Shown piece by piece: positions 2,041 through 50,910 of a stretch of 58,165 nt of DNA; the first letter of the stretch is position 1, and each line of letters starts with the position of its first letter. This DNA is from an uncultured Candidatus Saccharibacteria bacterium (GTDB lineage Bacteria > Patescibacteriota > Minisyncoccia > Phycocordibacterales > JAACPR01), in contig CAYOAT010000002.1 in NCBI GenBank assembly GCA_964402215.1, positions 67,155 to 125,319 of the forward strand, in the 5' to 3' direction. The notes under the pieces are model-generated. The model searched no databases, was not told where the DNA came from, and saw only the letters and a list, made by a program, of their open reading frames with translations. A program made the position numbers and the translations under genes.

Positions 2041-2071
2041 TATTCTTTTATAAAAGAATATGATGTATAAT
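2041..2071 (+). promoter_or_regulatory. Perfect 20-bp palindrome followed by a -10 box
   Basis: TATTCTTTTA|TAAAAGAATA at 2041-2060, TATAAT at 2066-2071, ATG at 2079. Confidence 0.6.
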
Positions 2072-2078
2072 TAAACAA

Positions 2079-2609
2079 ATGTTTTCAGATCCTACAAAAA
2101 ATATTGAACAGTTTCATATTGATCCTGGCATGACCGTTGCGGATCTTGGTTCCGGTACTGGATTTTATACGTTTGTATTGGCCCAGGCAGTTGGCCCAAG
2201 TGGTAAAGTTTATTCTGTAGATGTTCAAAAGGAATTACTAAATAAGTTGAAAAATGAGGCTACAAATAGAGGCCTAAGTAATGTTGAAACAATCTGGGGT
2301 GATTTAGATGAAATTAGGGGAACTACTTTGCGCGATTTTTCTGTTGACAGAGCAATTGTTGTTAATACTCTTTTTCAGCTTGAGAAACCAGAAAATTTTG
2401 TTGCGGAAGTTAAACGAATTCTTAATCCAAAAAATGGAAAAATATTGATCATAGATTGGGTTGATTCTTTTGGAGGTATTGGTCCTACTCAAAGTATGAT
2501 TATGAAACCTGATGTGGCACGAACACTTTTTGAGAGTTCTGGTTTCAAATTTGATCGCGACATTGATGCAGGTGATCATCATTATGGAATGATTTTTAAA
2601 ACTTCATGA
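2079..2609 (+). CDS. Class I SAM-dependent methyltransferase
   Basis: Motif I VADLGSGTG, VYSVDVQ, and KILIIDW. Confidence 0.9.
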   Translation: MFSDPTKNIEQFHIDPGMTVADLGSGTGFYTFVLAQAVGPSGKVYSVDVQKELLNKLKNEATNRGLSNVETIWGDLDEIRGTTLRDFSVDRAIVVNTLFQLEKPENFVAEVKRILNPKNGKILIIDWVDSFGGIGPTQSMIMKPDVARTLFESSGFKFDRDIDAGDHHYGMIFKTS

Positions 2610-3910
2610 ATCAAAAACTTTCACCTTTTCAAATAGTTTTACTTGGCCTCATGGTTGTTGCGATTGTCGGTGGAGTTATTGTATTTGCAACTAAAAGAAA
2701 TAAATCCGCTGAATCTAAAATTCCAATTGATGTTTGGGGGACAGTTCCTCAAGAGATAATGAGTAATTACCAACTTAAATTAAATGAAGACCAAGAAGAA
2801 AATATTGTAAATATAATTTACAAAGAAATATCTGCCGACACATTTGAAAACGAATTGATAGAAGCTTTGGCTTCAGATAGTGGTCCAGACGCTGTTATTT
2901 TGGATGATGAAATGCTTTTGAAGCACGAGAATAAATTATTTTTAATTAGTTATGAATATTATAGCCAGAAACAGTTTAAAGATAATTTCATTGAGTCAGG
3001 TGAAGTTTTACTAAGAAAAGATGGATTTCTTGGTTTTCCAATTACTGTTGATCCTTTGGTCTTATATTGGAATCGTACAATGCTAAATAATGAGGGAATT
3101 ACAAACCCACCAAAATATTGGGACGACTTACTTTCTCTTGTACCAAGAATTGTTAAAAAAGATTCCTCCGGAAATATCAGTCGTTCCGCTGTTGCATTTG
3201 GTGAATATGAAAATGTTAGTAATGCAAAAAGCATGTTAATCGCACTGATTCAACAAGCCGGTAACAATATTATATTCAGAGATTTAGTGGAAAATAATTA
3301 TTATGCAAATTTGTCTGATAAATTTGGTTTCGCACAACGCCCAGCTGATGCTGCATTAAATTTTTATACACAATTTGCGAACCCAACAAAAGATGTTTAT
3401 TCATGGAATAAATCAATGCCAAATTCCAGGGAATTATTTATTTCAGGAGATTTGGCATTTTATTTCGGTCTAGCAAGTGAGAGAAAAGAAATAATTCAAA
3501 AAAACCCAAATTTAAATTTTGATGTTGCAATTTTGCCACAATCCAGATCAAGTGCAGAGAATTCAACAGTAGGTAAAATGCGTTTTATTGCTATTTTGAA
3601 TAAATCACAAAAAATTGCTAATGCATTTTCAACAATAACTAATATGGCCGGGCCACAATCTATTGAATTACTATCCAATGTAATGCAGGTAGCACCAATT
3701 CGAAGGGATGTTAGCGTTGATTTTACTTCTCAATCACACATGGATGTGTTTCATAAATCAGCTTTAATTTCTAGAGTTTTCTTGGATCCAAATAAAATTG
3801 AAACTAATCAAATTTTTAAAAAGATGATAGAATCTGTAATGATCGGCAGCCAAAGTGTCTCGCAATCTGTTGATCGAGCCAATCTAGAGCTTGAAACATT
3901 ATTTAAATGA
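2606..3910 (+). CDS. Membrane-anchored extracellular solute-binding protein (sugar ABC SBP-like)
   Basis: N-terminal TM helix, ALASDSGPD (AGxGPD-like), DPLVLYWN, PKYWDDL, FISGDLAFYFG, FDVAILPQ. Overlaps its neighbours through ATGA junctions. Confidence 0.8.
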   Translation: MNQKLSPFQIVLLGLMVVAIVGGVIVFATKRNKSAESKIPIDVWGTVPQEIMSNYQLKLNEDQEENIVNIIYKEISADTFENELIEALASDSGPDAVILDDEMLLKHENKLFLISYEYYSQKQFKDNFIESGEVLLRKDGFLGFPITVDPLVLYWNRTMLNNEGITNPPKYWDDLLSLVPRIVKKDSSGNISRSAVAFGEYENVSNAKSMLIALIQQAGNNIIFRDLVENNYYANLSDKFGFAQRPADAALNFYTQFANPTKDVYSWNKSMPNSRELFISGDLAFYFGLASERKEIIQKNPNLNFDVAILPQSRSSAENSTVGKMRFIAILNKSQKIANAFSTITNMAGPQSIELLSNVMQVAPIRRDVSVDFTSQSHMDVFHKSALISRVFLDPNKIETNQIFKKMIESVMIGSQSVSQSVDRANLELETLFK

Positions 3911-4299
3911 AAATGAAAGATTTTAAAAAAATATTATTTTGGTCTGCAGTGTTCGGTGCCCTATGTTTTTTGCCAGTAATTACTAACGCAGGTCTCGTTA
4001 CTTGTAGTTCCGTTCAAACATGTAATTTTAATGCCCTTGGCTTAATGTTTGTAAAGGTAATTAAGTTTGTCTTGAATTTAGGAATGACACTATCGGCAAT
4101 TGGTTTTGCTTGGGCAGGTGTTTTGTATTTAACGGCTGGAGGTGATACAGGAAAAATTGCCAAAGCCCATGAAATTTTTAAAAAAATATTAATTGGTTTC
4201 ATTATCGCTCTGCTTTCGTTTATTATTGTTGATTTAATTGCCAAGGCCTTTGGTTTGGACAGTTCTATTCAAGCCTTGTTTAATAGTTTTATTCCATAA
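3907..4299 (+). CDS. TrbC/VirB2-like pilin 1
   Basis: Signal-like N-terminus, then a two-TM hairpin with AWAGVLYLTAGGDTGKIAKA...ILIG. Confidence 0.75.
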   Translation: MKMKDFKKILFWSAVFGALCFLPVITNAGLVTCSSVQTCNFNALGLMFVKVIKFVLNLGMTLSAIGFAWAGVLYLTAGGDTGKIAKAHEIFKKILIGFIIALLSFIIVDLIAKAFGLDSSIQALFNSFIP

Positions 4300-4311
4300 T
4301 TAACAAAAAAT

Positions 4312-4677
4312 ATGTCAATTTTAAATAATGTAAAATATATTATTTCAATCGCTGTTTCATTTATTATACCATTTAACGTGATGGCCCAGGGCGCAATCGG
4401 GAGTAGCGGATTAGAAAACCCAATCGGCCCCGATAGTTTGGCGGAGGTAGTGGCTGCGGTGTTGAGTGTTGTTTCAACTATTGGTGCTGTACTAGTTGTT
4501 TTAGCAATTATTTATGCTGGATTTCTTTTTGTTACTGCACAAGGTAATAGTGATAAAATTCAGGAAGCAAAAACAATCTTTTTATGGACAGTTGTTGGAG
4601 CAATTGTTTTACTTGGCGCAAAGGCACTAAGCGAGATTATTGTTGAAACGGCTAGGGGTCTTGGAGTTACGGTTTAA
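4312..4677 (+). CDS. TrbC/VirB2-like pilin 2
   Basis: LENPIG, then IIYAGFLFVTAQGNSDKIQEAK...TVVG two-TM hairpin. Confidence 0.8.
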   Translation: MSILNNVKYIISIAVSFIIPFNVMAQGAIGSSGLENPIGPDSLAEVVAAVLSVVSTIGAVLVVLAIIYAGFLFVTAQGNSDKIQEAKTIFLWTVVGAIVLLGAKALSEIIVETARGLGVTV

Positions 4678-4682
4678 TTATT

Positions 4683-5072
4683 ATGATTATTAAACAAACA
4701 CTATTAATACTTGCTGGTTTCTTTTTAAACGCAAATCAAGTTTTTGCAAATGACATAAGCGGGCCGATAAATGATTTTCTTAATATATTAGGTGGAAGAA
4801 ATAGTGGATCTGGTCGCTTTACCATTATAAATTTATTGATAACGGTTTCTATTTTAATATTTATATATGGTTTACTTAAATATCTTTTTTCTGATGAAGA
4901 GAAAAAAAGAAAAGAAGGAATAAATACCATAACTTATGGTCTAATTGTTCTTGTTGTTATGGTTTCTGTTTGGTCCATTGTCGGCACAATAAGAAGCACT
5001 TTTTTTTCAGGTTCAACAGACTTACAGCCACGCGCAGGGTCACGACAATCAGTTCAACAATTTATTAAATAA
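4683..5072 (+). CDS. VirB2-like pilin 3
   Basis: FIYGLLKYLFSDEEKKRKEG...YGLIVLVVMVSVW. Confidence 0.7.
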   Translation: MIIKQTLLILAGFFLNANQVFANDISGPINDFLNILGGRNSGSGRFTIINLLITVSILIFIYGLLKYLFSDEEKKRKEGINTITYGLIVLVVMVSVWSIVGTIRSTFFSGSTDLQPRAGSRQSVQQFIK

Positions 5073-50416: not shown

Positions 50417-50447
50417 GAATTAAAAAGCCCACGTTTTTTAAATAGAA

Positions 50448-50473
50448 AACCCATAGAGAGTTTTCTATGGGTT
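50448..50473. terminator. Terminator between uvrB and the convergent islet
   Basis: AACCCATAGA-GAGTTT-TCTATGGGTT. Confidence 0.75.
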
Positions 50474-50484
50474 GAGTTTTAGAA

Positions 50485-50703
50485 TCAGTAACGAACTGCC
50501 TTGAGCAGTTCCACTGACTCGGGCGTCATTTCGCGTGCCTTCCAGATAAATGCGATGGGCAACGCGATCGCAATGTGACAGATGCCGATACCGACAATCC
50601 CACATATGTTCACAATTGGCTTATTAACGATAAGCACAACGGCGAGCAAAATGGCAGGAATCACGTACACGAACACCGCCAACACGATATCAACTTTTTT
50701 CAT
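50485..50703 (-). CDS. Small two-TM membrane protein (72 aa)
   Basis: AAGGA SD 5 nt upstream, two hydrophobic helices, GC-richer than the flanks. Confidence 0.72.
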   Translation of the reverse strand: MKKVDIVLAVFVYVIPAILLAVVLIVNKPIVNICGIVGIGICHIAIALPIAFIWKAREMTPESVELLKAVRY

Positions 50704-50734
50704 TTCTATCCTTCTTTGTTTTAAGTCTCAGTTG

Positions 50735-50836
50735 CTACACCGTCGCCCACACGAGCGCGGTGATAATCGTCGTTGCCAGCAAGATGATCTCGGAAGAGGT
50801 GATCTTGCTGATCTTTCTATCCAAAATGCTGCACAT
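50735..50836 (-). CDS. 33-aa single-TM peptide (not in the ORF track)
   Basis: MCSILDRKISKITSSEIILLATTIITALVWATV*, with AAGGAG SD 7 nt upstream. Confidence 0.6.
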   Translation of the reverse strand: MCSILDRKISKITSSEIILLATTIITALVWATV

Positions 50837-50882
50837 CGTTTTTCTCCTTTAAGTTAATGTACTATCCTTTACTATAAAAACT

Positions 50883-50910
50883 ATTATACCATAATATAGG
50901 TATAAGTCAA
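50883..50910 (-). promoter_or_regulatory. Near-consensus sigma70 promoter of the small-protein islet
   Basis: Minus strand TTGACT-N16-TATAAT with TG extension (TGgTATAAT). Confidence 0.7.

Follow-up and report, generated by a model that had tools for sequence, protein, structure and literature searches.

The stretch of DNA considered here comprises 58,165 nucleotides (C2:67155-125319 of assembly GCA_964402215.1) and is referred to below as the window. It carries core bacterial genes and, between them, small cassettes of higher GC content, and the two groups differ in what precedes their start codons: a promoter -10 hexamer lying close to the start in the former, a Shine-Dalgarno (SD) motif in the latter. 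The window contains no N and belongs to a genome of 737,936 bp in 10 scaffolds with a GC content of 34.5%, a completeness of 97.8% and a contamination of 1.9%. Judged from the relatives of its RpoD, the organism is an ultra-small bacterium of the Candidate Phyla Radiation (CPR, or Patescibacteria) belonging to the Parcubacteria (class Paceibacteria); the nearest of these relatives (70-88% identity) come from metagenome-assembled genomes named Paceibacterota, Taylorbacteria, Nomurabacteria, Zambryskibacteria or Parcubacteria. In what follows, G000 is the genome studied and G003 a sister species of the same genus, represented by a gap-free contig of 554,705 bp with 42.6% GC; G001 and G004 belong to the genus as well, and G005 to another one. 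Genome-wide, genes and their starts were taken from a simple codon-model caller of open reading frames (ORFs) applying a first-ATG rule.

Gene starts in the window

The features of the window are listed in Table 1. NCBIfam profiles back the gene names ClpB, ThrS, DnaE, L32, SMC, S16, TrmD and HisS. The name given in a preliminary description of this DNA to the gene at 38495 had to be corrected, since the profile match is to DnaG; IF-2 is encoded by the infB gene of Table 1.

The same description had placed a -10 hexamer 6-10 nucleotides (nt) before the start codons of a series of core genes. All of these sites were read and the hexamer is present at most of the genes named; it is weak at rpmF (TACACT, 10 nt), and a convincing box was not found in the region upstream of trmD. 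By our own gene calls, dnaG, infB, the first pilin gene and others also possess the box, which brings the total to about 19 genes in the window. The NCBIfam profile alignments begin at residues 1-11 of the proteins encoded by boxed genes, which argues that the short starts are the right ones, including those of dnaE (22787) and rpsP (29775) over upstream TTG codons. The rpoD layout was followed in 77 relatives: a box at leaderless distance is found in 15 and an SD in none, so that conservation of this layout at the level of the class was rejected in favour of the genus. Two of the boxed starts call for a separate remark. In the divergent intergenic region between hisS and the 77-aa gene, the transcription bubbles of the two promoters would almost overlap. 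The GTG of uvrB directly precedes the conserved N-terminus of UvrB (…PAGDQP), and GTG at leaderless distance is rare in the genome.

Table 1. Start signals, SD-led cassettes and the IF-2 gene of the window (positions count from the first nucleotide of the window)
Feature	Coordinates	Strand	Description
Methyltransferase (Pfam), box	2066-2071	+	TGtTATAAT, 7 nt before ATG 2079
12110 gene, box	12095-12100	+	TATAAT, 9 nt before ATG 12110
clpB, box	13005-13010	+	TAGAAT, 8 nt before ATG 13019
thrS, box	19563-19568	-	CATAAT, 9 nt before ATG 19553
dnaE, box	22794-22799	-	TATAAT, 6 nt before ATG 22787; DnaE profile from residue 2
smc, box	25475-25480	+	Extended -10 TGcTATAAT, 9 nt before ATG 25490
rpsP, box	29762-29767	+	Extended -10 TGgTAGTAT, 7 nt before ATG 29775; S16 profile from residue 3
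dnaG, box	38481-38486	+	TAAAAT, 8 nt before ATG 38495
rpoD, box	40214-40219	+	Extended -10 TGaTATAAT, 8 nt before ATG 40228; same layout in same-genus relative L017
hisS / 77-aa gene, divergent intergenic region	44068-44117	-/+	50 nt; two back-to-back TGcTAAAAT, 9 nt to hisS ATG 44067 (-) and 8 nt to ATG 44118 (+)
uvrB, box	48383-48388	+	TATATT, 6 nt before GTG 48395
Two-gene SD cassette	6136-7905	-	Promoter TTGACA-N18-TATAAT (TGa extended) 7876-7905; 5'UTR about 44 nt; GC 0.44 vs genome 0.345
362-aa gene of this cassette	6737-7825	-	SD AAGGAG 7835-7840, 9 nt before ATG 7825
181-aa gene of this cassette	6192-6737	-	SD GGAGG 6744-6748, 6 nt before ATG 6737; terminator about 6136-6165
Single-gene SD cassette	17445-17824	+	SD AGGAGG 17445-17450, 5 nt to ATG; 110-aa orphan 17456-17788; terminator hairpin 17789-17824
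SD cassette, antisense between uvrB and uvrA	50440-50910	-	Promoter TTGACT-N16-TATAAT (TGg extended) 50883-50910; 5'UTR about 40 nt
33-aa ORF of this cassette	50735-50836	-	SD AAGGAG 50844-50849, 7 nt before ATG 50836
72-aa hydrophobic ORF of this cassette	50485-50703	-	SD AAGGA 50709-50713, 5 nt before ATG 50703; terminator about 50440-50472
infB (IF-2)	8815-10329	-	Minimal, 504 aa; matches only positions 72-584 of TIGR00487, without N-terminal extension

The genes of the three cassettes had been credited with strong SDs, and all five motifs proved canonical, 5-9 nt before the start. A likeness had also been noticed between two cassette leaders (ACATT..AAGGAG). It is real, but it lies inside the 5' untranslated regions (5'UTRs), downstream of the separate consensus promoters of these cassettes; ACATT recurs in about 9 of 70 SD leaders and is not statistically prominent. 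The idea that the leader TACATT could serve as a cassette -10 was dropped, as consensus promoters were found 50-56 nt upstream.

Genome-wide distribution of the two signals

The arrangement seen in the window holds throughout the genome. When exact TATAAT hexamers are taken as anchors and the next ATG is scored provided that its ORF reaches 80 aa, offsets of 12, 13, 14 and 15 nt collect 38, 16, 18 and 23 cases, respectively, against about 3 at other offsets. The same motif-anchored count is flat, with no offset peak, for the control hexamers TTTAAT, AATAAT, TATAAA and reversed TATAAT. The flat controls rule out AT-richness as the explanation, and they equally dispose, TATAAA among them, of an artefact in which the TAA within TATAAT would act as an in-frame stop and bias a first-ATG-after-stop rule. 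A box was then defined as at least five of six positions of TATAAT with the hexamer starting at -16 to -11 of first-ATG starts. It is present in 217 of 708 genes (31%) against 66 in a control window, and with the TGn extension in 102 against 9. The hexamer ends 5-10 nt before the ATG, most often 6 nt, and the distance between -10 and start, for which a genome-wide survey had been proposed, gives a sharp peak with the hexamer starting at -12 to -15. Base composition before starts tells the same story: G is depleted from -13 to -1 (0.05-0.12 vs 0.18), with peaks of A at -11 (0.57) and of T at -7 (0.41) and -1 (0.51), as would be seen if a -10 hexamer occupied -12 to -7 and transcription began on the A of the ATG.

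The box is not evenly distributed. It occurs in 42-59% of genes whose upstream gap measures 16-79 nt and in 8-16%, near the control value, of those with a same-strand gap of no more than 15 nt; it is largely confined to operon-first genes. Roughly 26% of genes start no more than 15 nt after a same-strand gene or overlap it. At box distance, ATG alone is enriched, GTG and TTG are not, as would be expected for leaderless translation. The layout is also conserved: among 133 boxed genes with a reciprocal-best-hit (RBH) orthologue in G003, it is kept in 92 (69%), against a base rate of 25% (p=1e-26).

SD motifs follow a different distribution. They were scored as SD 5-mers at -17 to -8, and genes with a GC content of at least 0.40 were called GC-rich. 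The motif precedes 45 of 139 GC-rich genes (32%; control window 5, 3.6%) and 26 of the 667 others (3.9%; control 16, 2.4%), an odds ratio of 11.8 (Fisher p=3e-20); in native low-GC genes, SD motifs do not rise above chance. The leaderless box has the opposite preference (5% of GC-rich vs 32% of other genes, p=3e-13), and box and SD occur together in a single gene. An equal SD frequency in core and orphan genes, which would have spoken against two regimes of initiation, is thus not what the genome displays. The SD-bearing genes, which the preliminary description had suggested clustering by GC and by the taxonomy of their best match, differ from the other genes in GC content and in conservation. 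In G003 the same split is obtained, SDs preceding 38% of genes with GC of at least 0.48 (control 4%) and 3% of the rest (p=4e-18).

The SD-led genes share further traits. A near-consensus TTGACA-N16-18-TATAAT promoter lies 48-95 nt upstream of 15 out of 43 of them, as compared with 6-8% in other classes; their SD consensus is AAAGGAGAA, and the gap between AGGAG and ATG peaks at 5-6 nt. Their median GC is 0.436 vs 0.332. The class amounts to roughly 5-8% of genes, GC-richer, fast-evolving and mostly accessory. Outside the window it includes a DAHP synthase, a class I/II aminotransferase, an Orn/DAP decarboxylase, an M16 peptidase, an AAA ATPase, a Gcw_chp beta-barrel-like protein and many orphans; GC-rich SD-led loci are found at G000:C6:12788-13855, C6:30074-35220, C4:52882-53841 and C5:39414-40166. 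The DAHP synthase, aminotransferase, Orn/DAP decarboxylase, M16 peptidase and Gcw_chp-type protein (outer-membrane beta-barrel-like) form an unexpected set in an organism supposed to possess neither amino-acid biosynthesis nor an outer membrane. The two beta-barrel-like proteins have orthologues in the sister species.

The 16S rRNA tail and the initiation factors

The single 16S gene ends in ...GGAAGCUGCUCGUGGAUUAUAUAAAAAUAC (tail GGAUUAUAUAAAAA), where the E. coli counterpart reads GGAUCACCUCCUUA. Neither CCUCC nor CUCCU occurs anywhere in this 16S, and CCTCC is missing from the 2 kb downstream; the 3' end, which the preliminary description had singled out for inspection, thus carries no anti-SD, as predicted. 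The anti-SD is likewise absent from all 15 relatives of the genus, family and order with an assembled 16S 3' end, and their tails vary (UAAUUCAAGUGAA, UAUUUCAAAUG and others). In a class-wide sample of 83 genomes, CACCUCC is kept in 40, partly decayed in about 10 (CAUCUCCUU, UUUCUCCUU) and missing altogether from about 32. The Paceibacteria in fact display a graded decay from CACCUCCUU through CAUCUCCUU or UUUCUCCUU and CACUUCUUA to unrelated AU-rich tails, a series that suggests several independent losses under relaxed selection.

Other parts of the initiation machinery are reduced. A search for uL1 gave no PF00687 match in this 97.8%-complete genome and a match in 14 of 14 control genomes; bS21, searched for in the genome, is absent, and the genome encodes a short bS1-like protein comprising at least three S1 domains. 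The earlier remark that IF-2 is N-terminally short holds true; its proposed tie to leaderless initiation remains speculation. Together, the tail GGAUUAUAUAAAAA, the missing bS21 and uL1 and the minimal IF-2 describe a ribosome apparently unable to form an SD helix, which fits leaderless starts.

Some additional features of the rRNA locus deserve mention. The 16S departs from the universal 515F primer site at E. coli positions ~515-533, with GUGCCAGCAGCAGCGGUAAUAC in place of GCCGCGG, and this mismatch would lower recovery of the lineage in amplicon surveys. A conserved hairpin, GUCGAUUUCUGUGCCUCGAUCGAGCACAGAAAG, is located about 45-60 nt downstream of 16S helix 45 in several genera (L001 in G000:C1; L002-L014); its palindromic loop-stem covaries (CUCGAUCGAG / CUCAAUUGAG) and it may represent a stem used in processing the rRNA precursor. 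The 900 nt after the 16S contain no 23S gene.

Interpretation and relation to known systems

We consider it probable that two gene-start architectures coexist in this organism, one in which the promoters of native genes abut the start codon and one, restricted to a minority of GC-rich cassettes, in which a conserved SD has nothing to pair with in the 16S. At native AT-rich operon-first genes, an extended -10 with a weak -35 or none would make RNA polymerase initiate on the A of the start codon or 1-3 nt ahead of it, and ribosomes carrying initiator tRNA would then bind the leaderless mRNA directly. Genes no more than 15 nt behind a same-strand gene presumably start by coupling of termination and reinitiation. 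A cassette is an autonomous unit in which a TTGACA/TATAAT promoter is followed by an A/C-rich leader of 35-80 nt, by AAGGAG at 5-9 nt from the start codon and, behind the coding part, by an intrinsic terminator; its strong -35/-10 promoter would produce leadered mRNAs whose AAGGAG is unpairable with the organism's own 16S. The original proposal that core mRNAs are leaderless or nearly so thus draws support from the promoter geometry and from a 16S devoid of anti-SD.

Several points weigh against this interpretation. The case for leaderless mRNAs is one of promoter geometry. About 64% of genes have neither box nor SD, and coupling would account for the initiation of only some of them; the starts given by the caller were validated by profile alignment for about 10 window genes only. 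No partner of the SD was found: the CsrA gene is absent, and a scan of intergenic hairpin loops for a small RNA with an exposed CCUCC loop returned no convincing candidate, only terminator-like hairpins. The SD-led class is poorly conserved, with an RBH orthologue in G003 for 21% of its genes as opposed to 54-60% of the others (median identity 54% vs 73-75%), and any G003 match at all for 26 of 111 GC-rich genes as opposed to 440 of 626 low-GC genes; most SD-led genes are accessory and, for these, a relic of transfer is possible. The stronger predicted folding of cassette mRNAs (z=-3.7 and -3.3, against -1.0 and +2.2) is anecdotal, as it compares two cassettes with two native genes and includes terminators for the cassettes only. 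Finally, the comparison across the class covers 12 Paceibacteria, a small sample of genomes that are not phylogenetically independent. Its results themselves speak for the interpretation: the leaderless-box excess is higher in anti-SD-less than in anti-SD-keeping genomes (16% vs 4.8%, p=0.03), and the strict-SD excess, small everywhere (0-7% of genes), is no lower in the 7 anti-SD-less than in the 5 anti-SD-keeping genomes (medians 4.5% and 1.8%, p=0.43).

Could the box act on the RNA rather than on the polymerase? It might be a surrogate SD pairing with the altered 16S tail, or an AT-rich unstructured enhancer on leadered mRNAs. The reverse complement of the genus tail GGAUUAUAUAAAAA is UUUUUAUAUAAUCC, which contains UAUAAU (5'-AUUAUA-3' complements UAUAAU); moreover, a spacing of 6-9 nt would be optimal for an SD too, and the regions upstream of starts are A-rich. 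When 155 anchored sites are aligned, however, the kept flank consists of T at -17 (0.59), T at -15 (0.68) and G at -14 (0.63), yielding TnTGnTAtAAT with almost no -35; TG at -15/-14 and T at -17 are what contact with sigma region 3 calls for, whereas the complement of the tail predicts UA there. Of the 38 tRNA genes, 9 also have a TGnTATATT box, located 14-17 nt ahead of the mature 5' end (Poisson p=0.001), and its presence before these untranslated genes argues that it is the organism's promoter irrespective of translation. The absence of a peak for TATAAA and AATAAT and the weakness of the signal in operon-internal genes point the same way. The 16S tail differs from genus to genus, and the boxed-start architecture is equally strong in G011, whose tail is UAAUUCAAGUGAA. 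Pairing of TATAAT with the new tail was rejected on the strength of the extended -10 flank, the tRNA promoters and G011, and an RNA-level role of either kind now seems very improbable; by its motif and its flanks, the box is a true extended -10 promoter (TnTGnTATAAT).

The cassettes, for their part, might carry SD motifs as inert baggage, having been imported recently or recurrently from SD-using donors through a shared flexible pool, the motif not yet having decayed. The deviant composition of the class, its largely species-specific content and the location of cassettes beside tRNAs or between genes, each with its own promoter and terminator, are all compatible with such a history. The genomic context of the DAHP-synthase cassette differs among other Paceibacteria, anti-SD-keeping Paceibacteria (G224) show the same minority class, and no homologue of the 17456 and 50836/50703 cassettes was found in G003. 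The islet at 6192-7825 behaves otherwise. In G001, G003 and G004 its neighbour is again the tRNA-Cys/Leu/Lys/Leu cluster, and G005, from a different genus, has the islet as well; a TTGACA/TGaTATAAT promoter is common to the islets of G000, G001 and G003. An SD-like G-rich motif stands 5-9 nt before the ATG of both islet genes in five of five genomes, despite protein identities of only 26-42% and a leader that for the most part cannot be aligned. The protein family was not detected in 16 other sampled families of the order and would therefore have evolved inside the anti-SD-less clade. Islet GC amounts to 0.44 in G000, 0.42 in G001 and 0.51-0.56 in G003, a steady offset of about 8-10 points above each host, which points to long residence. 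(The two genomes G003 and G000 differ by 8 points of genomic GC, 42.6% vs 34.5%, within one genus and at an RpoD identity of 88%, and the GC of the SD-led cassettes moves in parallel.) The DAHP synthase likewise has its nearest relatives in other Paceibacterota (57-71% identity, against about 45% outside the group), and the promoter, SD and terminator of its cassette are conserved in another genome. As to recent horizontal acquisition, the evidence is mixed: the composition deviates and most cassettes are absent from G003, yet one islet is syntenic in the genus and the DAHP-synthase cassette forms a Paceibacterota-specific clade. We regard inert baggage as an unlikely account of the class as a whole. 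Judged by synteny across the genus and by an SD retained at 26-42% identity in an anti-SD-less order, the main islet of the window represents a maintained class and not a fresh import. Of the two origins offered earlier for these islets, a separately tuned class and a shared donor pool, the former fits this islet best; the class being largely accessory, the pool may apply to other cassettes. A far more trivial cause would be that SD-led GC-rich genes were mis-binned or mis-scaffolded from another organism: scaffolds are joined across 10-N gaps, and outside the window several GC-rich islands lie next to such gaps. In the N-free window, however, the three cassettes are flanked by core genes, the same dichotomy exists in the gap-free contig of the sister species, the islet is syntenic in four independently assembled genomes and the estimated contamination is low. 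On these grounds an artefact was rejected, and we give it next to no credence.

If the SDs of the cassettes are maintained, their conservation suggests a role independent of the 16S tail. The most likely one would be that of a purine-rich landing or standby site left unpaired in GC-rich mRNAs that otherwise fold strongly; in the 50836 cassette, the SD is unpaired in the minimum free energy structure. A more tentative proposal, possible but the less probable of the two, is that AAGGAG is read by a factor other than the 16S tail, either a protein or a trans-acting RNA with CCUCC, which would make the cassettes a separately controlled translational regulon. Among possible readers of GGA motifs, CsrA was rejected, its gene being absent. 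The repeated element GAUCCUCC was rejected as well, its CCUCC being paired. This structured repeat of about 80-110 nt, present in some 10 genome copies, with a copy in the window (30523-30641, minus strand; core match 30602-30619), follows stop codons and folds into a variable, covarying A/U-rich outer stem around a conserved core UUUGAG(A/U)UCCUCCGCAG(G/A)...CGAGGACUGGA(A/U)CGAA (z -5 to -8.5). Rfam returned only sub-threshold generic hairpin matches for it, and the CCUCC of the core is paired, not exposed. In an extreme variant, which we hold to be highly improbable, the cassettes would be built for the canonical ribosomes of a host or partner cell, just as T-DNA genes carry host-type signals; some cassettes encode Gram-negative-type beta-barrel-like proteins.

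The two architectures, promoter-abutting starts and cassettes with an unpairable SD, resemble several known systems without coinciding with any of them. The cassette genes possess the GGAG-type motif 5-10 nt upstream that is typical of canonical SD initiation, but the complementary anti-SD is absent from their own 16S. In Bacteroidia such as Flavobacterium, initiation is reportedly SD-independent, the anti-SD being present but sequestered, the start context A-rich and 'Kozak-like', and rpsU keeping a strong SD. The likeness lies in a majority of genes without SD, in upstream regions depleted in G and enriched in A and in a small special set with strong SDs; the difference is that the anti-SD of Bacteroidia exists and can be exposed, whereas here the gene itself lacks it, bS21 is missing and the dominant upstream signal is a promoter box. 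The cassettes are also reminiscent of phage 'morons' or autonomous modules: they have their own promoter, ribosome-binding site and terminator, differ in GC, sit between core genes or beside tRNAs and encode mostly small membrane or orphan proteins. Unlike morons, they lie outside recognizable prophages, at least one is vertically inherited across the genus and their offset in GC follows that of the host genome.

That the anti-SD has been lost in this subgroup of Parcubacteria is already known: 48% of Parcubacteria retain the motif, and the loss overlaps the group without uL1 (Tsurumaki et al. 2022, RNA 28:1041; PMC9297842). The present organism conforms to that description, with a 16S end lacking CCUCCU and uL1 and bS21 absent, and the 40 out of 83 genomes that keep the motif in our sample come close to the published 48%. 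That paper considers the formation of SD helices improbable, leaves aside the question of how genes start and mentions neither leaderless mRNAs nor a conserved SD-led minority (PMC9297842). The box itself has a counterpart in group C of GeneMarkS-2 (Actinobacteria, Deinococcus-Thermus), in which a Pribnow box lies about 6-10 nt from operon-first starts, 25-50% of transcription units are affected, other genes follow a second gene-start model and AUG is preferred; Parcubacteria are not mentioned in that paper's text (Lomsadze et al. 2018, PMC6028130). As in group C, the box is found here at a fixed ~6-10 nt far above chance (217 of 708 genes vs 66) and mainly in operon-first genes. In group C, however, non-leaderless genes use an SD pairing with a normal 16S tail, whereas here the anti-SD is lacking, native non-leaderless genes have no SD (3.9% vs 2.4%), SDs are restricted to GC-rich accessory genes, the box belongs to an extended -10 promoter and the genome is an AT-rich CPR genome of 0.74 Mb. 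In open-access papers, a link between CPR or Parcubacteria and leaderless initiation was not found. What appears to be new is the combination of anti-SD loss, promoter-abutting starts and compositionally distinct cassettes with an 'orphaned' SD under apparent constraint, which we did not find described.

How translation starts in bacteria without an anti-SD was left unanswered in 2022. For native genes, the answer put forward here would be promoters that abut the ATG, together with operon coupling. A practical consequence is that gene callers built on an SD model will misplace starts in such genomes, as the long TTG-extended ORFs at dnaE and rpsP exemplify. The cassettes present a paradox, a classical SD conserved on a defined class of genes with nothing in the 16S to pair with; if the motif is functional, SD recognition would be separable from the 16S tail.

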